DNA of 10,576 bases from Promethearchaeota archaeon. Lineage in GTDB: Archaea; Asgardarchaeota; Lokiarchaeia; Sigyniarchaeales; SOKP01. Numbering within the stretch: the stretch's first letter is position 1; each line of letters opens with the position of its first letter. Shown piece by piece: positions 1-10,342 of the stretch. The translations under genes were made by a program, and so were the position numbers. Where the stretch lies: assembly GCA_048941285.1 (NCBI GenBank), contig JBHLNS010000076.1:1-10576 (forward strand), read 5' to 3'. The notes under the pieces were generated by a model. It had not been told where the DNA came from. It saw only the letters and a program-made list of their open reading frames with translations, and made no database searches.

Positions 1-1141
1 TTCTTTTAAAATTTAATGGAATAGGAGCATTACATCGAGAACAGAGACCAGAAGTTCTAAGCCAATCTTTAAACTCATCCGCATGGGCAGGATATCTACA
101 ATTTGGGCATAAAATGATTCCTCTGCCATTATCTTTAGGAGACTCTGGCAGTCGAAAGCAAAAAATACATTTAAAATCTTCAATTGTCAAGTTTGCTGCT
201 CTCGGCCTATATAATTTTAAATTTATTTGCTTTTTTCTGCTTTGACTCCTCCTAATTGGTTTTCCTGTTGTACCTCTGCTTGTAGAATGAGTACTTGTTT
301 TAACTTTAGAACTTCTAGATTGTATTTGACCGCTAGGTGTTGATCTTGATGATTGAGACAAACTTCTTGAAGTACGAGTTACAGTTCTTGTTGAAGGTGT
401 TGAACCTATTCTTGTTGTAGTACGAACAGTTTGCCTTCGGCTACTAGGAGCGGATCGTGTTGTTGGTGTTGCTAGTTGATTTAACCTATTAGTTCGTTGT
501 GTTACGTAATCTCGGGTCAATTGAGGTAATTGAGTTCTTGATCCAAAAAAACCAAGCACAATCATTATTAGTATGGTGCAAATAAGAAATATTAGAAGAT
601 TAAGATCTATTAGAAAGTGGAGAGGGACTAAAACAGTATCATAAAGATCAACAAATGAATAAAAACTAACCCAATAAATTACAATAAAAAGTACAATTGA
701 AATGCACAGAAAATAACCAAAAGTACGTGCTTTTACTGATTTTGTACCAAAATATATTACACTATACTTTTTGAAACACCGATATAAAGAAATTGAACTA
801 TATAGGACGTAGGGAAATCCGAATAGAATGGTCCACCAACTTAAATATAAACTGGATCCTTCTAAAAGATTTTCGCCTAATAAACCTGTGAAATTACCCC
901 AAATTGAGTAAAAAATTCCCATAAAAACAGGACCAATTGTAAAGAATGCGGTGTTATGAGGAGAATTAAACTCACGATATTGTTTGATATTTTTTATAAC
1001 TTTAATAGAATAGATTAACCAAATCCCAATTAACAACCAACTTGCAAAAACATTAAAGGAATTTAGTATAACTCCATGTATAATACCGATCACCATAAAT
1101 ATTACCAATGTAATTGCTATGGATTTAATCTTAGCTTTCGT
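1..1141 (-). CDS. Multi-pass membrane protein (about 6 TM) with a Ser/Thr/Arg-rich linker and a C-terminal variant RING finger; putative membrane E3 ligase. 3' end is truncated by the window edge. Start is uncertain: ACG 1141, TTG 1108 or ATG 1096.
   Basis: Not in the ORF track. Manual translation gives a frame open from 1144 to the window edge. Hydrophobic segments: SIAITLVIFMVIGIIHGVIL, VFASWLLIGIWLIYSI, AFFTIGPVFMGIFYSIWG, LYLSWWTILFGFPYVLYSSISLY, FGYFLCISIVLFIVIYWVSFY, LNLLIFLICTILIMIVLGFFG. These are followed by a low-complexity S/T/R linker and then CIFC-x16-CPNC-x4-H-ADE-FKDWLRTSGL-CSRC (nt 169 to 32). The gene lies directly downstream of E1, E2 and JAMM. Confidence 0.88.
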
Positions 1142-1167: not shown

Positions 1168-1980
1168 TTAATCTTCATCATATTCAAGGTAAACGGCTTT
1201 TCCTTCAATAATAGGATTCATAAATTTAAGTATTTCTGGTAACATTTTTACATCTAAAGATCCTTTAATCCCATAAACCAAAGGATACCATGTTTTAGAT
1301 TTAAAATCAGCTTTATATATCTCAAATCCAGTAGATTTACCATCAATTTGATAAGGATCAATAACAAGAGCTACAGCTTTATCCCATAATTTTTGATATC
1401 TTGCTTGAGTTCCCAGATCTTCATTAGACATAAAACAACCATATGATGGATGCGAATGATACCATCCACAGATAAACAATTTGTGTCTTTTAATATCTTT
1501 AAAAGCTCTTACATAATTTTTATAATCTTTAATCTCTGCATAAACTGCTGTACCATGTCCCATTGGATAAGAATCTTCAATGTGGATTACATTATTTTCA
1601 TCTATTTTTCCCGCAAGAAGTCCTATAACCTCCACCCAACTTTCTTTTGGAATTTTAGAATTAGCATATTTAAGTGCGTGACTAGCTATTTTAAGAATTG
1701 CTTTTACTGAAATATAGATTTCCTTTTGAATTTCCTCTACTTTTTGAGTTTCAGCTATTTTATTTTCTATAATATTAGCTGTAGGTATCTTTGTAAGTTT
1801 TATAGTTGGTTTATTAGAAGATTTTAGGGTAATCATTGAAGATATTTCCTCAGTTAATTCATCTTCTTCTAACTGCAGTTCTTCACAAATTTCATCAATT
1901 AATTCTTGTTTTATTTTTTCTTTTATCTTCCGTTTAATTACATCCTTGATCGAATTACTCGCTAGGTCTTTTTCTTCCAT
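1168..1980 (-). CDS. JAMM/MPN+ metalloprotease (Rpn11/CSN5-like deconjugating enzyme) with an N-terminal charged extension
   Basis: Has EVIGLLAG (catalytic Glu), GWYHSHPSYGCFMSNEDLGTQ (intact HxH-x7-S-x2-D) and AVALVIDP. Start moved from 1995 to ATG 1980 because GGTGAT (1993-1988, overlapping the E2 stop) is positioned as its SD. Confidence 0.95.
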   Translation of the reverse strand: MEEKDLASNSIKDVIKRKIKEKIKQELIDEICEELQLEEDELTEEISSMITLKSSNKPTIKLTKIPTANIIENKIAETQKVEEIQKEIYISVKAILKIASHALKYANSKIPKESWVEVIGLLAGKIDENNVIHIEDSYPMGHGTAVYAEIKDYKNYVRAFKDIKRHKLFICGWYHSHPSYGCFMSNEDLGTQARYQKLWDKAVALVIDPYQIDGKSTGFEIYKADFKSKTWYPLVYGIKGSLDVKMLPEILKFMNPIIEGKAVYLEYDED

Positions 1981-1988
1981 TAAAAAAA

Positions 1989-2516
1989 TCACCATTTTTT
2001 ATTTGCATACTTTTTAACAAGATTTTTTACCTTTTTCTCAAAAAATTTTTGGTTTTTCATCATTTCGATTGCTGCTTTTTTATTAAAAACATCTGTTGGA
2101 TTAACATATTTACCTCGCGTGTTTAACATAGCAATTATCGCTTGAACGACGGTAACGGCGGTCTTTGATGGGCTCCACCCGCCTTTTTTCCCAACTAATG
2201 AGGGATCTACTAAAGCTAGGCAAATATTTCTTTGTCCTTTATATTCTGATGGTTTTGGCCAAAAATTTGGATGCCAAATTGGAGTATGCATTCTTACAAA
2301 AGGAGGTTGTTTTGGATATTGAGCAGGGAATCTCAATTCTAATCTAAAAAGACCACCTGCATAAGCAGTACCTTTAGGACCTTGAAACGAAATTGCCAAA
2401 TGATCAATACTCTTCCTTTTTGGATTAAATGGTTTTAATTGAACGAGACTACCTTCTTTAAGCATTTTTTTTAAACCCGCAAAATCTCGGGTAATACGAC
2501 TACTTCTTATACTCAT
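1989..2516 (-). CDS. Ubiquitin-conjugating enzyme E2 (UBC fold)
   Basis: GPKGTAYAGGLF, FPAQYPKQPP, TPIWHPN, catalytic Cys99 in NICL, WSPS and the C-terminal helix KNLVKKYA are all UBC hallmarks. Confidence 0.96.
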   Translation of the reverse strand: MSIRSSRITRDFAGLKKMLKEGSLVQLKPFNPKRKSIDHLAISFQGPKGTAYAGGLFRLELRFPAQYPKQPPFVRMHTPIWHPNFWPKPSEYKGQRNICLALVDPSLVGKKGGWSPSKTAVTVVQAIIAMLNTRGKYVNPTDVFNKKAAIEMMKNQKFFEKKVKNLVKKYANKKW

Positions 2517-2595: not shown

Positions 2596-3855
2596 TTAAA
2601 ACTTTATTTGGTTCAAATTCTTTTTTAATTTTAAGGTTACAAAAATTTCTCCACCTAAAAACCCCGCAACTGTCATAAATTCATAATTTCTTAAACCATT
2701 TTCAATAGAATTCTTATCTAAATCAACCATCTTAACATCATTAAAATCTAGTAATGTAAGAATTGGTTCAGACTCCGGATCCAATTTAAATCCATTTTTA
2801 GCTAAAATTTTAATAATGTTTATACAAGGTGATTTGGAATTCAATTTTATAGATACTCTACGTACTTTTTTACCACATTGGGAACATTCTGGATTCCTCG
2901 ATTTTTCAATGTGATAAAATTTCATTGTAATGGAATTAAAGATTACATATGTCTTAATTGGTTCTCCTACTCCTTTAAGACCCGCCTTAAAATGAAGTAT
3001 TTTTATTACTTCATGTGATTGTAAGGCAGAAATAACAGCATTTATTGTTATTATACCTGGATCGTGTCGATCGATTATTTTCACAATATCATCTTGAGTA
3101 TATTCAGGTAAGAAATTGTGTTTGTTTACTAATTCATTTGCAACCTTTTGAATAAAATTAATATCATTTATATCTTTTGGATTTGGATCTCGATCAAATT
3201 TTTCTTTAAAGGCCATATCTCCTTTAAAAACACAATGTATTCTTTTTCGAGGAACACCGACTACAGTGCAAGCAGCCATCTCATCGCTTTCTCCTACAGG
3301 TAACGGATTGCATTCATAACAGGCATTTTTATAAGGAAATATTGTATATATATGACCATGATAACCGGATACTCCTCCATCAACAAGGGGTTTCTTAAAT
3401 CGAATGCACTGAGCATTTAAATTCAAACGAGCATTCATCGAATCTAGGCCTCCAACAATAACATCAGCAGCTAAATATATTGCTGGATTTAATCGTTCTA
3501 AAGAAGTGTGATATCCATTAATAATAATATTAGGATTAATTTCTTTTAATTTCCTTGCAGCAACAACTGCCTTAGGCTCTCCTATCTTCGCATCAGTAAA
3601 AAGAATTTGACGATTCAAGTTTGAATGTTCAATAATATCTAAATCAACAAGATCTAATTGCCCAACACCAAGCATTGCTAGATTTTTAGCTATTTCACAA
3701 CCTAAGCCTCCAACACCAACTATTAACACTCTTGAGTTCTTCACTAATTTCTGAGACCATCCCTCCAAACGAAATTGGCGATCATATAGCTCTCGCTCTT
3801 CTGTTGATAAATCTTTTGCGAAAAAATCTGAATCCTTATCCAATTTTATCACCAT
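2596..3855 (-). CDS. Ubiquitin-like activating enzyme E1 (ThiF/MoeB adenylation domain, catalytic-Cys domain, probable C-terminal UFD), UBA3/UBA2-type
   Basis: Has YDRQ, GVGGLG, DLDIIEHSNLNRQ, Zn ligands CYEC and CSQC, catalytic Cys196 in AACTVVGVPRKRIHC, and PGIITINAVISALQSHEVIK. About 90 further residues follow the second CxxC. The true start may be TTG at 3843 (GGTGAT-AAAA-TTG). Confidence 0.95.
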   Translation of the reverse strand: MVIKLDKDSDFFAKDLSTEERELYDRQFRLEGWSQKLVKNSRVLIVGVGGLGCEIAKNLAMLGVGQLDLVDLDIIEHSNLNRQILFTDAKIGEPKAVVAARKLKEINPNIIINGYHTSLERLNPAIYLAADVIVGGLDSMNARLNLNAQCIRFKKPLVDGGVSGYHGHIYTIFPYKNACYECNPLPVGESDEMAACTVVGVPRKRIHCVFKGDMAFKEKFDRDPNPKDINDINFIQKVANELVNKHNFLPEYTQDDIVKIIDRHDPGIITINAVISALQSHEVIKILHFKAGLKGVGEPIKTYVIFNSITMKFYHIEKSRNPECSQCGKKVRRVSIKLNSKSPCINIIKILAKNGFKLDPESEPILTLLDFNDVKMVDLDKNSIENGLRNYEFMTVAGFLGGEIFVTLKLKKNLNQIKF

Positions 3856-3935: not shown

Positions 3936-4268
3936 TTATCCCGCTGTACTTGCAGGGATTAAAAGAATATCATCGCCGTCGTTTACACCATATTCTCTTA
4001 AAGAACTATTTTCATCCATCGTAACTCCACCAGATGATAAATGAAAGTCATTGGGATCAAGGCCGTATAAATTTCCTAATGTTTCCTTAATATCACTTAC
4101 ACGATTACTATCATTTACTGTAAGTTTCTCCTTCTTTTCACCTGGACCAATTGTTGACATGAAGTATAAAGTTAATTTCTTTCCACCTGAAGGGGTTTTA
4201 GAGGCGGGAGTTTTAGATTTTACCGGTTCTCTTCCACCTAATTCTTCATCAAATTCATCAAAACTCAT
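3936..4268 (-). CDS. Ubiquitin-like (beta-grasp) modifier Ubl-1 with an N-terminal extension, ending in single-Gly -PASTAG
   Basis: Ubiquitin-fold pattern: LTV..S..VSDIKE.L....GLDP.DF.L..GG..MDE...L.EYGV.DGD.I.L. First gene of the E1/E2/JAMM/RING operon. SD-like GAAGTGAT lies 4 nt before the ATG. Confidence 0.92.
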   Translation of the reverse strand: MSFDEFDEELGGREPVKSKTPASKTPSGGKKLTLYFMSTIGPGEKKEKLTVNDSNRVSDIKETLGNLYGLDPNDFHLSSGGVTMDENSSLREYGVNDGDDILLIPASTAG

Positions 4269-4541
4269 TCATATCACTTCTAATTTTTTTTATTTTATGA
4301 TTTTTAGTTAATTTAAATTTAATAAAATGGCATTAAAAAGGTATTATAAAACCCTTTGGAATGATTTTGAAGTATTTAAAGATAAAGCCAAAAAACAGAA
4401 GTGAGATAATTTGGATTTTAAAGAAATTATATTATATATTGTATGAATGCCTAATTATATTTATAAGACATTGAATATTGTTTTAGAGAGAATATGTAAA
4501 TATAAAAATGGAAAATTTTAACTCAAATTAATTATAGGCTT
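4269..4541. promoter_or_regulatory. Divergent promoter region between the Ubl operon and the wHTH gene
   Basis: 273-bp AT-rich gap between divergent genes. TATA-like elements on the minus strand: TTTATAAT (4350-4343) and TTTAAATA (4380-4373). The functional element cannot be pinned down from sequence. Confidence 0.5.
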
Positions 4542-5213
4542 ATGAGTTCTCTGGATAATGCAGAATCTGTTGTTCTTGAATTAGTAGAGGAGTATTTGGC
4601 AAAAAAGACTTTCTTCTCAATTAGAGAAATTGTCTCATATATAAGTAATAGAGTTAGATACAATCCTAATATAAATGAAAATAGAATAGAATTAGTCTTA
4701 AAGAATTTAATCAAAAGACGTGTTATTTTTCCCGGAACACGATTAATGAAGAATAATATTATTGAACACCCAATAAGAAATGAGATCTTTAACTATATTA
4801 AAAAGAATCCCTCTAATATTAATGAAATCATGAGAGCTTTAAATATTGGTAGCAATCAAGCATTATGGCATTTGTCATGTCTGGAGAAATTTAAATTCAT
4901 AAGATCAAAACAAATTAACAATCATAAATTATTTTTCAAATTTGATTCTAATCCAAAACTCGATTCATTATTTTATTATCTGAACAAAAAAATTGTTCAA
5001 GAAATTATAAACTTTATAAAAAACAAAAATAAAGCATTTAAAATTACAGAGATAGCAACTGGTTTAAGAAAAAATCATAGTACTATTAAAAAATATTTAG
5101 ATATTCTAATAGATCTAGAATTAATAATAATTCAGAAAGAAAATAATAGAATTACATTCAAAATAGATTTGGATAAATATTCTAAAGCTCAAAAATCAAT
5201 AGAAGGTGTGTAA
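4542..5213 (+). CDS. Tandem winged helix-turn-helix protein, putative transcriptional regulator (archaeal COG3398-like)
   Basis: Two ArsR/MarR-like wHTH units, RNEIFNYIKKNP..INEIMRALNIGSNQALWHLSCLEK and QEIINFI...FKITEIATGLRKNHSTIKKYLDILIDLELI, plus a probable degenerate N-terminal wHTH. Confidence 0.8.
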   Translation: MSSLDNAESVVLELVEEYLAKKTFFSIREIVSYISNRVRYNPNINENRIELVLKNLIKRRVIFPGTRLMKNNIIEHPIRNEIFNYIKKNPSNINEIMRALNIGSNQALWHLSCLEKFKFIRSKQINNHKLFFKFDSNPKLDSLFYYLNKKIVQEIINFIKNKNKAFKITEIATGLRKNHSTIKKYLDILIDLELIIIQKENNRITFKIDLDKYSKAQKSIEGV

Positions 5214-5298
5214 AAATAAAAACTCCAAATTTATTCCAATCCCATTTAAATTTTAAATCGTATATCTTAAAATTAGAAAATGATCTAATCAAAAAATT

Positions 5299-6093
5299 AT
5301 GAAAAAGAATAATAAAATTTTAACCGTTATTGCTCTTTACACTGTTTGTATCTTGTTTTATGTAATTTTTTTCCTATTTCATATACAAAATACTACGATT
5401 TTCCTTTTTTTAACAATTGGTAGTGTCGCGGTATTATCAACTAGTACTATTTACACAGTTATACAGTCTAAAAGTAGTCCAGGTATGACTATAAAAGAAA
5501 AAAAGTCTTTTATAAAACCAAAATCGATTCAAATTGATACTAACGATATAATTGAAGATTATATTGATGTTATGCCTTCAATAGAATCTTATATCGATTC
5601 AGATGAGTCTTATAAAGATATGCCAATAATTGACAAATATATCTTTTCAATTTTTAGTAAGGAAGAATTAGATAAGATAAATCTTTTAGATTTACCAAAA
5701 ATGGATAAGATAATATTTATCAGAGAAATGCTATATTACGATCCAAATGAAAGAAAGAATTTAATCGAAAATATGTTGAAAAGTAGGGATAAAGCCGTTG
5801 AAATAATAAAATATTCACCACCTAGCAATCAAATTGAATTGGAAGACCAGATTCGAGTTTATGTTAGATCATTACTAGAACCCGGTGAAAAAACTAAAAT
5901 AATTATTATTGATACGAGTGATCTAATTGGAATAACAAAGGAAAAAATTGGAGTATTATTTGATTATGATCTAGAAGATTTTCTTTTATCTAGTGGTGGG
6001 ATATTGCTAAAAGACAATTTACTAATAAAAGATTATGATATCGATGATGATGATGAGATCGCTCTAATCCCTTCTAGAAAAAGCATAAATTAA
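5299..6093 (+). CDS. Membrane-anchored protein (2 N-terminal TM helices) with a C-terminal ubiquitin-like domain paralogous to Ubl-1 and Ubl-2, lacking a terminal Gly
   Basis: TM segments ILTVIALYTVCILFYVIFFLF and TIFLFLTIGSVAVLSTSTIYTVI. The C-terminal domain (5845-6093) shares S..[GE]PGEK, KE....LF, DF.LSSGG, Y...D.D.I.LIP with the free Ubls and ends IPSRKSIN. Confidence 0.88.
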   Translation: MKKNNKILTVIALYTVCILFYVIFFLFHIQNTTIFLFLTIGSVAVLSTSTIYTVIQSKSSPGMTIKEKKSFIKPKSIQIDTNDIIEDYIDVMPSIESYIDSDESYKDMPIIDKYIFSIFSKEELDKINLLDLPKMDKIIFIREMLYYDPNERKNLIENMLKSRDKAVEIIKYSPPSNQIELEDQIRVYVRSLLEPGEKTKIIIIDTSDLIGITKEKIGVLFDYDLEDFLLSSGGILLKDNLLIKDYDIDDDDEIALIPSRKSIN

Positions 6094-6110
6094 ATAAAGA
6101 ACCTAAATTT

Positions 6111-6548
6111 TTAACCAGCAATACTAGCTGGAATTAAAAGTATGTCATCTCCATCAGAAACATTGTAGTAGCTTAATGTATTAGTTTCTTCCATGGTTAC
6201 ACCACCAGATGATAAATAGAAGTCAGCAGGATCTAAACCAAATAAATTAGCAACAGTTTCTTTTATATCTCCGACTAAATTCCCATTATTAACAGTTAGC
6301 TTTTGCTTTTTTTCACCTGGGCCAATAGTGGACATAAAAAATACCGAAATCTTCTTCCCACTAGTAACAAGAGGTGTAGAAGGAGTTTTAGATTCAACTT
6401 CATGCTCGGGAACCTTTACTGAAGGCTCTTCTTTCTTATCCTCATATTTCTCTTCAAATTCTTCATCTAAATCTTCTAAATCTTCATCAAATTCTTGTTC
6501 GTCAAACTCTTCATCAAACTCATCATTAAACTCTTCATCAAAACCCAT
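6111..6548 (-). CDS. Ubiquitin-like modifier paralog Ubl-2 with a long acidic N-terminal tail, ending -PASIAG
   Basis: The core is 59/82 identical to Ubl-1 by hand alignment. SD-like GAGGT lies upstream of the ATG. Confidence 0.92.
   Translation of the reverse strand: MGFDEEFNDEFDEEFDEQEFDEDLEDLDEEFEEKYEDKKEEPSVKVPEHEVESKTPSTPLVTSGKKISVFFMSTIGPGEKKQKLTVNNGNLVGDIKETVANLFGLDPADFYLSSGGVTMEETNTLSYYNVSDGDDILLIPASIAG
6450..6542 (-). repeat. Degenerate, mostly 12-bp coding tandem repeat (TTTGATGAAGAR) encoding FDEE units
   Basis: Encodes FDEE-FNDE-FDEE-FDEQE-FDED-LED-LDEE-FEE; aaactcttcatc-like units recur on the + strand. Confidence 0.75.
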
Positions 6549-6753
6549 AAAATAGACCTCAATACATTACATATTTTTTTAAATATAATTCTGATAAATC
6601 TTCTGTTATGATTATATGAAAATAATAGAAACTAAGCTATTTAAATAGATTTAACAAAATCACAATTTTGAAATTTCAATTTTGTCATACAAACACTTTA
6701 GAGTCAATATTCATATGAATTTATTAATAGAATAACTAAAGATTTGAAGCATT
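6549..6753. promoter_or_regulatory. Divergent promoter region between Ubl-2 and the coiled-coil gene, with a 12-bp palindrome
   Basis: Perfect palindrome CTATTTAAATAG at 6637-6648 gives the TATA-like TTTAAATA on both strands, roughly midway between the two starts. Confidence 0.45.
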
Positions 6754-7911
6754 ATGAATGATAAACCAATTCCCAAATATCAAATTCGAGAAAAAACTCC
6801 AGATGAAGAATTAGATATCATTACAGATAAAAAATTATTAAAAAAGATAAAAAAAGAAAGAATAAAATTGGACAAAGAAAAAAGTGAATGGGAAAAGGTA
6901 ATTAATCAAATTCAAGACTACAAAGAAAATGTTGAGGATCTCGAAAAAAAACGAAAAGAAAAAGAACTTAAAATTAAATCTCTTCTTGAACAAAGAGATA
7001 AATTAAAAGATGAGTTAGAAAGAACGAAGAATCAAATAGAGCAACAAAAAAATGAAATAAATGTTAAAGAACGACAATTTAAAGAAAAGATCCAAACTAA
7101 AAATGAAGACTTAAATCAAAAAAATAAAGAATTAGAAAGATTTCAAGAAAAATTAGATAAATTGAGAGAAGATATTTCTAATCAAAAAAAGAATTTAGTT
7201 TGGGAAAAGGAAAGGACAGAAAAACGAATAAAAGAAATTAAAACAAAAATTCCTGGCATGGAGAGAAGAGAAAGTGCATTAGAAAGAACTATTAATGATT
7301 TAGAAAACAAATTAATGGACTTAAGAAATGAAGTTAAAAATTTAACTAGAGAAAGGGATAATCTAACTAAGGAAGTTAACAACTTAAAAAGAGAGATTAA
7401 TGATGAGAAAAATCGTTTTTCTGATGAAAAGCAAAAACTTAAAGAAGAACGAGAAAAAACTCGTTTTAAAAAACAAGATTTAGATTTAAGAACTCGTGAA
7501 CTTGATAAAAAAAAAGCAGATCTAAAAAAATATAGAGATAAAGTAGAAAATGATGTAAATGATTTAGAGAAAAAAAGACGCCAACAAGAAGCAAGATTGA
7601 AAGAATTAGAAAGAAAAGTACCTGCATTAGAAAATAGATATCACTCTTTAAATCACAAAATTCCGAATTTAGAAGAAAAATTCTCCAGATTAAATAATGA
7701 ATATAAACAATTAGAAAAAGAAAAAACGAAATTAGAAAGCGAAAAAAGTCTTATCAAACGTGAAAGAGAAAAACTTGAAAAAGATAAACAAAGATTTTCA
7801 CGAGAAAAAAGAGATTTTGAAACAGAATTAAAAAAAATCAAATCCAAAACTCCAACAATTAAAGCAAAGACTCCTTCGCATATCAAAACTAAAACACCCT
7901 CTAAATATTAA
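6754..7911 (+). CDS. Long coiled-coil protein with a C-terminal KTP-repeat tail
   Basis: About 335 aa of K/E/R/L-rich heptads with no Walker motifs or TM segment. Tail is IKSKTPT-IKAKTPSH-IKTKTPSKY. Confidence 0.85.
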   Translation: MNDKPIPKYQIREKTPDEELDIITDKKLLKKIKKERIKLDKEKSEWEKVINQIQDYKENVEDLEKKRKEKELKIKSLLEQRDKLKDELERTKNQIEQQKNEINVKERQFKEKIQTKNEDLNQKNKELERFQEKLDKLREDISNQKKNLVWEKERTEKRIKEIKTKIPGMERRESALERTINDLENKLMDLRNEVKNLTRERDNLTKEVNNLKREINDEKNRFSDEKQKLKEEREKTRFKKQDLDLRTRELDKKKADLKKYRDKVENDVNDLEKKRRQQEARLKELERKVPALENRYHSLNHKIPNLEEKFSRLNNEYKQLEKEKTKLESEKSLIKREREKLEKDKQRFSREKRDFETELKKIKSKTPTIKAKTPSHIKTKTPSKY

Positions 7912-7922
7912 TTAATATTAAT

Positions 7923-8972
7923 GTGAAATTGATGAGGATTGTTAATTCAATTGAAGGAGATTATATAGAAACAAAAAAAGATAATTTGATTTTTGATGTA
8001 AAAGGGCTTCTCCATCCAAAAGATTATATTATTTGTTTTCTAAGATTTTATCCTCATCCGGAGGGAGAACGAATAAAAAATGGTATAAAATTCAAAAAAA
8101 TCTACAAATTAAACGAACGATATGATCTTTTAAGAAAAAATTATCCAAAATATCTTCTGTTTTCTAAAGAATTAGATTTAGAAATACAAGGTGTTAAAAA
8201 CTATGATATAAAAAAAATTTATAAACCTAAGATCTTTTTTAACGACTTATTAGAAAAAAATCAATTATCTAGTGTTGAAGATTGTGCAAAAAAATTATGT
8301 GAATTATTTATTAATGAGGGAAATCTTTCTAAGAATTCAATTGGAATCACTGGATCACTTATGGCTGGATTAAATACTGATGATTCAGATATTGATTTAA
8401 TAATATATGGCACAGAAGCAAGTATGAAATTTCAAGAGAAATTGGTTAATATATTTGAAAAGCCAAATAATTGTCGCAAATATACTATGAATGAATATAG
8501 ATCCCATTATCAATGGAGAGTTGGCGGTTCTGATATTCTATTTGAAGATTTTCTTAAAACTGAACAAAGAAAGCAACATCAAGGGAAATTTATGAATCGT
8601 GATTTTTTTATTAGATATATTAAAAGTCCTAAAGATTGGAAAGGGAATTTCTATGACTATCAGTTTACAAATTATGGCAGGATAAGACTTAAAGCTACCA
8701 TATTAAATTCAAAAGATTCAATTTTCACTCCTTGTACTTATAAAATAAAATCGTTTAAAGTTCTCGAAAGAAGTATTAAATCAAAAAAAGTTAATTTACA
8801 AAACATAAATGAAATCTGCTCATTTAGAGGTCGTTTTTGTGAGCAAGCAAAAGATGGAGAAATAGTGTTAGTAGAAGGAAAACTAGAAAAAGTTAATTTT
8901 CAAAATACTGGAGAATATTTTAGAATATTATTAACTAATCAAATAAAAGATAAATTGCTCATTATAAATTGA
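7923..8972 (+). CDS. Predicted nucleotidyltransferase, Pol-beta superfamily (archaeal COG1665-like), with a probable C-terminal OB-like domain
   Basis: GITGSLMAGLNTDDSDIDLIIYG gives the GS-x-DxD motif. N-terminal EGD.IE....IFDVKG..HP.....FLRFYP and C-terminal SFRGRFCEQA..GE...VEGKLEKV are typical of this archaeal family. Start is GTG 7923 or ATG 7932. Confidence 0.85.
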   Translation: MKLMRIVNSIEGDYIETKKDNLIFDVKGLLHPKDYIICFLRFYPHPEGERIKNGIKFKKIYKLNERYDLLRKNYPKYLLFSKELDLEIQGVKNYDIKKIYKPKIFFNDLLEKNQLSSVEDCAKKLCELFINEGNLSKNSIGITGSLMAGLNTDDSDIDLIIYGTEASMKFQEKLVNIFEKPNNCRKYTMNEYRSHYQWRVGGSDILFEDFLKTEQRKQHQGKFMNRDFFIRYIKSPKDWKGNFYDYQFTNYGRIRLKATILNSKDSIFTPCTYKIKSFKVLERSIKSKKVNLQNINEICSFRGRFCEQAKDGEIVLVEGKLEKVNFQNTGEYFRILLTNQIKDKLLIIN

Positions 8973-9031: not shown

Positions 9032-10342
9032 ATGGATATTTTTAACGCTGATCTGCATATTCATAGTCCTCATTCTATTGCAGTATCGAAATCATTGAAC
9101 TTAGATACGATGTTGGAGACTTGTAAGAAGAAAGGTTTAAATATTCTTGGAACTGGTGATATCTTACAACCTGAATGGTTAAAATATATGGAGCATAATT
9201 TAGAAAAGCAAAGTGATGGCTCATATTCATATAAAGACATTTTTTTTATCCTTCAGACGGAATTGGAAGATATAGAAAGCATACATCATTTAGTTTTATT
9301 CCCTGATTTCAAATCAGTTAAAGAAACTCAGATTAAGTTAACACGACATTCTAAAAATATTTTGGATGGATGGGGGGGAAGACCTAGGGTGAACTTATCA
9401 CCTCCTGCCTTAGTCGACACAATTTCAGATTCTGGTGGCATAATTGGCCCTGCTCATGCTTTTACTCCCTTTAAAGCAATTTTTCGACAAGGTAAATTTC
9501 AATCTTTAGAGGATTGCTACAAAGGAGTTAGTAAGAAAATAAGTTTTATCGAATTAGGTCTTTCTGCCAATTCTGATCTAGCAGATCGGCTAGAGTCATT
9601 AAAAGATGTGTCATTTCTAAGCAATAGTGACGCTCATTCACAAGATCCACGTTCTTTGGGACGAGAATTTAACAGATTTGATATCGATAACCCTTCCTTT
9701 AATGAAATTTTGCTTGCTCTGCAGAGAAGAAATGGAAGAAAGATAACTCTTAATGTAGGATTGCACCCTAAGCTTGGTAAATATTACAATATGTTTTGTA
9801 ATAAATGTAGGAGAAGAATTTTATTTAAGAAAGTGAAGAAAAATAGGAATGCGATCTTTAACCAATATTCGATAACTGAGAATTTTGTAATATTTTATTC
9901 TAATGATCCATACACTTCAAGATTGGATTATTTAGACCAAGTTTCTAAAAATAAGATGAATTGTCCAGCGTGTAAAGAACAAAGTAACAAAAATTTTAAA
10001 GTTAAATTAGGAGTAAGTGAAAGGATTGAAAAAATTTCTACATTTAAAGAAATTAAACATCCAGATCATAGGCCTCCTTATATCAATGCCGTACCGTTAA
10101 TTGACATAATTCGAGCAGTAAAAGGTATTAAAAGTACATCCAGTAAAACGGTTTTAAATGAATATAATAGAATAATTCAGGAACTAGGGACTGAATTTGA
10201 GATACTGATTGATATTCCGATTACTAAGATTGAAGATTTTGATGATAATACAGCCCTGATTATAAATGCTATTAGAAACAATGAGGTTGAGTACACTCCC
10301 GGTGGAGGAGGTAAATATGGCCAAATAAGATTTGATATTTAA
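9032..10342 (+). CDS. endoQ: Endonuclease Q family protein (PHP domain plus Zn ribbon; TIGR00375/COG1379)
   Basis: Has ADLHIHS, GTGD, HHLVLFP, GRP, PAHAFTP, ELGLSA, NSDAHS, LGRE, LGKY, CNKC...CPAC, GVSERI, HRPPY and PGGGGKYG. Confidence 0.9.
   Translation: MDIFNADLHIHSPHSIAVSKSLNLDTMLETCKKKGLNILGTGDILQPEWLKYMEHNLEKQSDGSYSYKDIFFILQTELEDIESIHHLVLFPDFKSVKETQIKLTRHSKNILDGWGGRPRVNLSPPALVDTISDSGGIIGPAHAFTPFKAIFRQGKFQSLEDCYKGVSKKISFIELGLSANSDLADRLESLKDVSFLSNSDAHSQDPRSLGREFNRFDIDNPSFNEILLALQRRNGRKITLNVGLHPKLGKYYNMFCNKCRRRILFKKVKKNRNAIFNQYSITENFVIFYSNDPYTSRLDYLDQVSKNKMNCPACKEQSNKNFKVKLGVSERIEKISTFKEIKHPDHRPPYINAVPLIDIIRAVKGIKSTSSKTVLNEYNRIIQELGTEFEILIDIPITKIEDFDDNTALIINAIRNNEVEYTPGGGGKYGQIRFDI

Follow-up and report, generated by a model that had tools for sequence, protein, structure and literature searches.

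The window, a 10,576-base stretch of DNA that makes up the entire contig C41 of a Promethearchaeota archaeon genome (Asgard, Loki-type; 3.55 Mb, 29.7% G+C), holds a eukaryote-like E1-E2-RING-JAB conjugation locus for ubiquitin-like proteins (Ubls). The locus is of a known kind, with two additions: a new conserved linear motif and a dedicated partner, a coiled-coil protein that we call CC. The motif reads phi-x-[S/T/E]-K-T-P, where phi is I, V, L or M and T is sometimes I or V. It occupies segments predicted to be disordered: the N-terminal tails of those Ubls that can be conjugated, and both ends of CC, its head and its tail. It is conserved, restricted to Ubls and CC, placed in disorder and co-inherited with the operon. 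An earlier, sequence-only reading of the window had quoted VKSKTPASKTPS from Ubl1, VESKTPSTP from Ubl2, EKTP from the CC head and a threefold repeat from the CC tail; all four lie where the following list of open reading frames (ORFs), domains and motifs puts them. Models were made with AlphaFold2 (AF2).

2..1108, minus strand: RING-TM, a putative E3 that crosses the membrane several times, with a linker rich in S, T and R and a RING-like zinc finger at the C-terminus (ORF)
1168..1995, minus strand: JAB/MPN (Rpn11-like) isopeptidase, extended at its N-terminus by about 90 residues (PF01398, E 6e-18)
1989..2516, minus strand: E2 of UBC fold, with HPN...Cys and with insertions peculiar to the family that flank the catalytic cysteine on either side (PF00179, E 2e-24)
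2596..3855, minus strand: E1, a ThiF-type activating enzyme (PF00899, E 4e-61)
3936..4268, minus strand: Ubl1, with an acidic FDE-rich start, two motif copies, a beta-grasp and the C-terminus ...PASTAG (ORF, PF00240, AF2)
4223-4188, minus strand: Ubl1 tail motifs VKSKTP and ASKTPS, in the string quoted above (translation)
5299..6093, plus strand: TM-Ubl, a membrane protein whose C-terminal beta-grasp has neither the AG end nor the motif and is thus not conjugatable (PF00240, residues 189-256)
6111..6548, minus strand: Ubl2, with a long acidic tail, a degenerate KVP copy and VESKTP, a beta-grasp and the C-terminus ...PASIAG (PF00240)
6398-6381, minus strand: Ubl2 tail motif VESKTP (translation)
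6754..7911, plus strand: coiled-coil protein CC, 385 residues, with a disordered head, long helical rod and disordered tail (ORF, AF2)
6784..6801, plus strand: CC head motif IREKTP, inside the conserved PIPKYQIREKTP (translation, alignment)
7237..7254, plus strand: internal variant IKTKIP in the CC rod (translation)
7606..7665, plus strand: internal variants LERKVP and LNHKIP in the CC rod, at dips in model confidence (translation, AF2)
7837..7902, plus strand: CC tail with three copies, IKSKTP, IKAKTP and IKTKTP, in IKSKTPT-IKAKTPSH-IKTKTPS (translation)

Ubl1 and Ubl2 belong to a family of beta-grasp modifiers with a C-terminal glycine; in an alignment of 47 sequences A109 and G110 are invariant, and most sequences stop there. 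Both C-termini in the window (3936-3941 and 6111-6116; ..IPASTAG and ..IPASIAG) are AG, not GG. Several orthologues (L046, L047, L049, L051, L054-L057 and others) run 1-8 residues beyond AG, which looks like a precursor that needs trimming, presumably by the JAB enzyme, as would be expected of JAB-trimmed precursors. The best match of the Ubls is ubiquitin; the Rad60-SLD model reached only 20.1 bits, below its cut-off. A lone third Ubl gene elsewhere in the genome (G000 C65:16700-19357, L136) encodes a protein that shares its tail with Ubl1 and is 95% identical to it. A bactofilin-family gene (PF04519, E 6e-11) and the gene of an acidic helical protein follow downstream.

Ahead of the fold, the conjugatable Ubls of the locus carry one to three motif copies, about 10-15 residues before the first beta-strand. 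KTP occurs no more than 40 residues before that strand in 86 of 94 distinct conjugatable tails; K[SVIA]P takes its place in five, and three have none. In the 47-Ubl alignment, which spans several classes, K19, T20 and P21 are invariant columns although the rest of the tail is mostly gaps, a contrast already noticed in the two tails of the window. The same holds at closer range. A Ubl was present in all 24 other genomes of the genus first sampled, and across 20 genus loci the Ubl1 tail has SKTP in 20/20, with KTP as the second copy in 13 and K[IVS]P in the other 7, while the Ubl2 tail has KTP in 19/20 and KVP in 1/20; the residues flanking the motif vary in both sequence and length. Tails from the wider class can hold, for example, ...IASKTP... 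twice, and those from other classes keep phi-x-S-K-T-P, usually in two copies. The motif thus links the Ubl tails to CC not only in the window but in orthologues of the genus, the class and other classes. The weight of this conservation, as read from the alignments, lies in the motif persisting while the sequence around it changes.

CC follows a head-rod-tail plan, with a long helical rod between disordered ends. Its AF2 model (mean predicted local distance difference test, pLDDT, 80.1) is a single helix from residue 26 to 362, and residues 1-4, 9-23, 362-376 and 381-383 fall below pLDDT 50; in the Ubl1 model (mean 75.4) the beta-grasp spans residues 31-105 and residues 1-25 likewise fall below 50. 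These low-confidence stretches place the motifs on predicted disordered head and tail segments. The contrast between ends and rod is sharp: in 48 CC proteins, KTP occurs 133 times in the terminal 90 residues (the first 55 plus the last 35; 4,320 residues in all) and not once in 13,792 rod residues, a count that omits four truncated or masked copies (L046, L055, L070, L071) and BLAST matches to unrelated coiled-coil proteins at other positions in the loci. Thirty-two aligned heads share invariant P7, K8, K14 and P16, with Q10, I11 and T15 conserved in at least 90%, and within the genus the head reads ...PK[YH]QI[RQH]EKTP.... At the other end, K and P of the last tail copy are invariant and its I and T at least 90% conserved in 36 aligned tails, and the genus C-terminus reads [KNR][ST]KTPS-x-Y in 19/19 full-length proteins. 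Across the class, the head of CC has as many as four copies and the tail as many as three. Within the rod, K-[IV]-P variants occur three times, each with a hydrophobic -3 position, two of them at confidence dips and one at least 90% conserved; IKTKIP has 22 occurrences among 51 CC-type ORFs, and K288, P290 and K302 are at least 90% conserved, where blocks within 281-310 have pLDDT 65-70.

These counts speak against a chance likeness of low-complexity tails rich in K, T, P and S, an explanation that is vanishingly improbable. We scanned 5,413 six-frame ORFs of at least 60 residues (1,207,643 residues) from the window's genome against the expectation from composition. Plain KTP is at background (181 observed, 177 expected), and single copies of [IVLM]xxKTP are close to it (63 observed, 50 expected; for terminal copies 5 observed and 3.7 expected, and 11 observed and 7.3 expected), as chance would have it. 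The proposed proteome scan for [IV]KxKTP nevertheless gave 9 matches against 2.4 expected, of which five lie in CC (3), Ubl1 (1) and the lone Ubl1 paralogue on contig C65 (1), and two KTP copies spaced 1-6 residues apart occur in only 3 of the 5,413 ORFs: CC, Ubl1 and the C65 paralogue. The motif therefore stands above background in its clustered form and not as single copies or plain KTP. Chance also leaves K, T and P invariant across classes in otherwise diverging tails, and the 133 to 0 contrast between CC ends and rods, without explanation; on the invariant columns and the end-versus-rod contrast we rule out chance and plain low complexity. The motif is a true short linear motif kept by selection and no accident of composition.

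To define its profile we used 178 Ubl-tail and 153 CC copies, picked as K-x-P; the alignments themselves were not built around the lysine. K and P are fixed, -3 is hydrophobic, and +1 is preferably T, with I, V, K and A accepted and S rare. In CC, I fills -3 in 133 of the 153 copies and S, T or E fills -1 in 136; +1 is T in 127, V in 7, K in 3, Q in 3, and S, A and Y in 2 each. The Ubl-tail copies have T at +1 in 136, I in 12, V in 8, K in 5, A in 4, G in 4 and E in 3. The form first described, (I/V)KxKTP, is real but narrower than what is conserved, which extends to a hydrophobic residue at -3 with fixed K and P and, in other classes, to a partner that is not a coiled coil. Such a profile fits a short extended strand that presents the lysine, and it speaks against an obligatory phospho-acceptor.

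The earlier suggestion of a proline-directed kinase site is weakened by the same numbers, since T is replaced mostly by I, V or K and seldom by S. In its fullest form this suggestion has phosphorylation control how a putatively filament-forming CC assembles and how active the Ubl is. A proline-directed site needs no more than T-P, and the anatomy of CC, with its single helix and disordered ends, is what such a filament protein would have. Neurofilament M and H tails carry K-S-P repeats, and lamin rods are flanked by proline-directed sites; CC resembles neurofilament- and crescentin-type proteins in its long uninterrupted helical rod and in the K-x-P repeats of its disordered ends. It differs from them in having no sequence kinship with them and in a dispensable hydroxyl residue. 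Pfam and NCBIfam gave CC only generic coiled-coil matches below cut-off and hence no family identity, and its look-alikes in the ESM Atlas are generic, filament-type coiled coils by features only, scoring below 0.9. The obligatory hydroxyl before P, with S and T interchanging, that marks KSP-type sites is absent here: the replacements at +1 are mostly non-phosphorylatable in both the Ubl and the CC set, the fixed residue is lysine and not threonine, the partners in other classes use mainly KIP, KVP and KLP, and the conserved core of the locus has no kinase gene. We therefore regard control by phosphorylation as very improbable.

The co-occurrence of CC with the operon in syntenic loci, which the sequence-only reading had named as a check, holds widely. 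In the genus, 20 syntenic loci preserve the complete gene order as far as their contigs reach, and CC adjoins Ubl2 in 20/20, once cut by the contig end. CC is present in 11/14 further loci, comprising loci of the same order and split or partial genus loci; it is missing from L052, L054, whose contig ends 220 bases past the Ubl, and L060, a detached piece of a split locus. Across 20 loci spanning the other genera and families of the class, CC adjoins the Ubl in 17; the misses are L069 (no CC in 18 kb), L079 (a second Ubl locus, with neither E1 nor E2) and L080 (whose contig ends 256 bases past the Ubl). A single CC query found CC at the operon in 5/5 operon-bearing genomes tested and did not find it in 5/5 genomes in which a profile of the 47 Ubl sequences finds nothing, four of these being at least 90% complete; genera g2 and g9 each hold both states, operon with CC and neither. 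The CC gene is thus an inherited part of the conjugation locus.

Beyond the class, in other classes of the phylum, the E2 is still about 58% identical and the motif is met on a different partner. Two of 15 such loci (families f28 and f29) have CC, and eight of the 13 without it encode instead a basic K/P-rich protein of 219-286 residues, with no Pfam match, whose two ends both carry phi-x-x-K-[TIVL]-P repeats:

L085:5205-6065, K/P-rich partner
L087:5310-6170, K/P-rich partner
L088:10939-11640, K/P-rich partner
L090:5629-6309, K/P-rich partner
L092:6387-7121, K/P-rich partner
L093:14556-15236, K/P-rich partner
L095:5195-5854, K/P-rich partner
L099:6060-6761, K/P-rich partner

Neither protein is seen in the remaining five loci: L086 and L094, L089 (partial), L091 (masked by N) and L097, on a contig that begins 646 bases ahead of the Ubl; being partial or masked, L089 and L091 are uninformative about the absence of a partner.

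Within the operon the motif tracks conjugation competence. Counted in its generalised form, it reaches about 7 per 1000 residues in the Ubls and about 11 in CC, against 0-0.13 in orthologues of RING, JAB, E2, E1, TM-Ubl and the neighbouring winged-helix, nucleotidyltransferase and PHP proteins; TM-Ubl, which has no AG end, shows one motif in 30 orthologues. Conversely, AG-ended Ubl domains also occur fused C-terminally to larger proteins (L053:9691-11448; L096:1910-3718; L098:13072-14814; L073:12703-14658; L060:5342-6895), which means that whole enzymes could be ligated to targets, and these domains mostly have the motif or a variant ahead of them. The motif or a K-x-P variant of it stands just upstream of the Ubl domain in a vWA fusion, in one of two HerA-like ATPase fusions and in two further fusions; the second HerA-like fusion has no motif ahead of its Ubl domain.

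In the proteome-wide hunt for further clients by single copies, C59:11507-12460 (L135) was the only candidate with a conserved terminal copy. It encodes an unrelated single-pass membrane protein, with no Pfam match, whose basic cytoplasmic tail ends in RIKQKTPKNE (RIKQKTPK-x-E). Of its ten full-length-type matches one is unreadable, with two in-frame TGA codons; seven of the nine readable tails, including that of the window's genome, end in RIKQKTP, one in RIKTKSP and one in VNTKKP. The protein is a possible further client. Its tail could also be placed under a different explanation, in which the motif is a shared address outside the conjugation system, for a membrane surface, nucleic acid or another polymer. 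The basic character of the motif regions, the very basic K/P-rich partner of other classes, the membrane anchoring of both the RING protein and a second Ubl-domain protein, and the position of the lone Ubl1 paralogue beside a bactofilin gene would all suit such an address. It would leave unexplained why the motif follows the conjugatable Ubl into unrelated fusions and why CC is lost together with the operon, and a replaced E2 abolished the docking score described below, which argues weakly in the same direction. We consider an address of this kind improbable.

Across 40 E2 sequences, H82, P83, N84, F85, W86, P89, E91, R96, N97, I98 and C99 are invariant. Relative to solved E2s, which are gapped opposite, the protein has insertions at residues 85-97 and 105-111, flanking the catalytic cysteine, and the first of these, FWPKPxEYxGQRN, is almost invariant across classes; this 85-97 loop is a candidate reader of the motif. 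We had considered whether the E2 and modifier are orthologues of Ubc9 and SUMO and rejected this, the best solved matches of the E2 being ordinary ubiquitin E2s of the Ubc13, UBE2T and Rad6 type and the best match of the Ubl being ubiquitin. The RING-TM gene is cut by the contig start (window 1-245 region), and its orthologues are about 25 residues longer at the C-terminus (..NPKIISVKNY..). Its finger has C25, C28, C45, C48, H53, C67 and C70 invariant in 31 orthologues, in cross-brace-like columns, and matched no RING model in Pfam or NCBIfam.

We folded four chains together, each with its own alignment: the E2, the RING domain, the Ubl core (residues 28-110) and, as the partner to be scored, the C-terminal 46 residues of CC. 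The docking score was 0.52 (runs 0.55, 0.52 and 0.48), against 0.00 for the best of three controls, one of which had a replaced E2; the docking mark is reached by 116/157 solved complexes and 2/215 mismatched pairs, and scores of 0.60 or less include only 18/157 solved complexes together with both passing mismatches. At least 60% of contacts are shared between runs and the partner has pLDDT of at least 58, the score being given without an interface. The model is thus a weak hint that the CC tail may dock on the E2-containing assembly in an E2-dependent manner.

Taken together, the disordered-end placement of the motif, its tie to the conjugatable Ubl, the co-inheritance of CC and the absence of the motif from the enzymes lead us to favour, tentatively and at somewhat less than even confidence, a reading in which the motif is the site where the E2/RING machinery of the locus recognises its built-in client CC and the modifier's own tail, with the lysine as probable acceptor. 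The E2, which has invariant extra loops round its catalytic cysteine, would be held at the membrane by the RING protein, dock on the extended motif and pass the C-terminal glycine of the Ubl to the invariant lysine. CC would be the client built into the locus, chains would be built on the Ubl's own tail, as happens with SUMO-2/3, and the JAB protease would undo client modification and chains alike. The acceptor role of the lysine and the formation of chains are what we infer from this arrangement.

SUMO offers the nearest analogy. Its consensus site has a hydrophobic residue at -1 and an acid at +2, and SUMO-2/3 chains form through a consensus lysine in the N-terminal tail. The comparison with the SUMO tail, already drawn by the sequence-only reading, fits the anatomy, a lysine-centred short motif in the disordered N-tail of the modifier and in the disordered ends of its client; that the E2 reads the site is here an idea. 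Unlike SUMO, the hydrophobic position is -3, T-P follows the lysine, the E2 resembles Ubc9 no more than it does other E2s, and the modification itself is presumed.

The foremost alternative, which is unlikely but to be taken seriously, is that the motif is a non-covalent docking motif whose lysine is never modified. It would form an extended strand with the -3 I, -1 S/T and +1 T/I/V on one face and the lysines on the other, and bind a single partner common to all copies, which could be the JAB protease, the RING protein, the rear side of the E2 or, in the manner of a SUMO-interacting motif (SIM), the beta-grasp of the Ubl. On this view CC would receive or scaffold the Ubl or its enzymes with both of its ends, and the Ubl tail would serve self-association or auto-inhibition. 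The alternating pattern and the tolerated change from T to I or V fit a packing face, linear motifs commonly sit in disorder as this one does, multiple copies at both ends of a rod suit multivalent binding, and the weak E2-dependent signal carries no chemistry. Non-covalent docking alone would not explain why the lysine is the only residue besides P that never varies, including in alignments not built around it, or why the motif goes with an AG end fit for conjugation and is lacking in the membrane Ubl, which is not conjugatable. The AF2 monomer of Ubl1 leaves tail residues 1-25 unplaced, with no docking on its own beta-grasp, an outcome that neither supports nor counters auto-inhibition. Were the lysine unmodified, the motif would still be a new, well-defined docking motif of the system.

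Several observations count against recognition of the motif by the E2/RING machinery with the lysine as acceptor. Lysines are plentiful elsewhere in both proteins, and one in the Ubl core (K48 of Ubl1) is invariant too. An acceptor-only model leaves the preferences for T, I or V at +1 and for I at -3 unexplained, and these look like a docking face. The nearest solved relatives of the E2 are Ubc13, UBE2T and Rad6-type enzymes, with Ubc9 ranking lower, and the replaced-E2 control degraded the rest of the assembly too (other chains pLDDT 56). There is no partner protein in the examined stretch of L069, L086 or L094, nor by BLAST in 9 kb of L052. With single copies at proteome background, the motif is no general tag, and our counts come from related genomes and not from independent events.

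The locus seems to name its own client and site, by a six-residue motif common to the modifier tail and an operon-encoded partner across classes. The motif bears on how an archaeal E2/RING pair picks its lysine, on whether chain building through an N-terminal tail, the SUMO-2/3 solution, predates eukaryotes and on whether Asgard Ubl conjugation acts on cytoskeleton-like proteins. A bolder version, which we think quite unlikely to hold in full, is a motif-directed Ubl code: phi-x-x-K-T-P acceptors read by the E2, a modifier polymerised through its tail, and a filament-type CC cross-linked at head, tail and rod breaks, with a basic disordered target in other classes, would make an isopeptide-stitched lattice at the RING membrane that JAB dissolves. 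Such a code would be a structural use of Ubl conjugation predating eukaryotes.

Ubiquitin operons with eukaryote-like E1, E2, RING and Rpn11 are described from Caldiarchaeum subterraneum and Asgard archaea in the available text of three papers (PMC5654768, PMC6043591, PMC9192718). As far as that text goes, the window resembles them in gathering a beta-grasp modifier, ThiF E1, UBC E2, RING E3 (small in the known operons, putative here) and JAB/MPN protein in one locus, and departs from them in a modifier that ends AG instead of GG and has an acidic N-tail with the motif, in a multi-pass membrane RING protein, and in a motif-bearing CC or K/P-rich protein as constant member. The targets of Asgard Ubl operons are largely open; in the accessible part of one preprint, a Helarchaeial E1-E2-RING cascade mono-ubiquitinates UEV-Vps23 at K201, the sole client demonstrated in vitro in the papers considered here (bioRxiv 10.1101/2023.07.25.550441). 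The window shares with it an Asgard cascade and an operon-encoded client, putative in our case, and there the RING E3 aids recognition. There the client belongs to ESCRT-I and is modified within a helical hairpin, and the modifier is a di-glycine pro-ubiquitin, with no linear motif mentioned in the same portion of the text. The open full-text literature, which includes PMC11354881 and excludes subscription papers and supplements, yielded in its available text no KTP motif, Asgard Ubl N-tails or coiled-coil partner, and a full-text search found no paper pairing Asgard with KTP.

The organism itself seems to run at least two Ubl systems. Its genome has a second E2 paired with a 530-residue E1-like protein (G000 C61:6914-9751) and two other small ubiquitin-like frames ending in GG (C68:20075-20263; C40:37426-37680); the best Pfam ubiquitin match on C68 is an 85-codon stop-to-stop frame with GG plus one residue and no ATG, GTG or TTG start. 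Given this second pair and the GG-ended genes, the AG-ended, tailed Ubls probably form a separate, paralogous system.

The remaining genes of the window lie between the Ubl genes and 3' of CC; start codons of some ORFs in the relatives' loci examined were assigned mechanically.

4542..5213, plus strand: tandem winged-helix (wHTH) protein, a locus member in some genera only (HTH_5, HrcA_DNA-bdg and others; synteny)
7923-8972, plus strand: NTase, a nucleotidyltransferase-fold protein (domain search, synteny)
9032-10342, plus strand: PHP/TIGR00375-like protein (domain search, synteny)

The NTase and PHP pair lies on the same strand, 3' of CC, throughout the genus, and is a constant neighbour of CC only in the genus and the nearest genera. 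The wHTH and TM-Ubl pair (window 4542-6093) separates the Ubl1 and Ubl2 genes. We saw it alongside Ubl2 in genera g1, g22 and g15 only, there with NTase and PHP as well if the contig extends so far, which places the pair outside the class-wide core. The separate g21 locus L079 holds wHTH, membrane Ubl and PHP genes without the others. In the closed genome G022, alone in the genus, the locus lies in three distant pieces: Ubl2-CC-NTase-PHP, wHTH-membrane Ubl and E2 (L059, L060 and C1:1854852-1855376).

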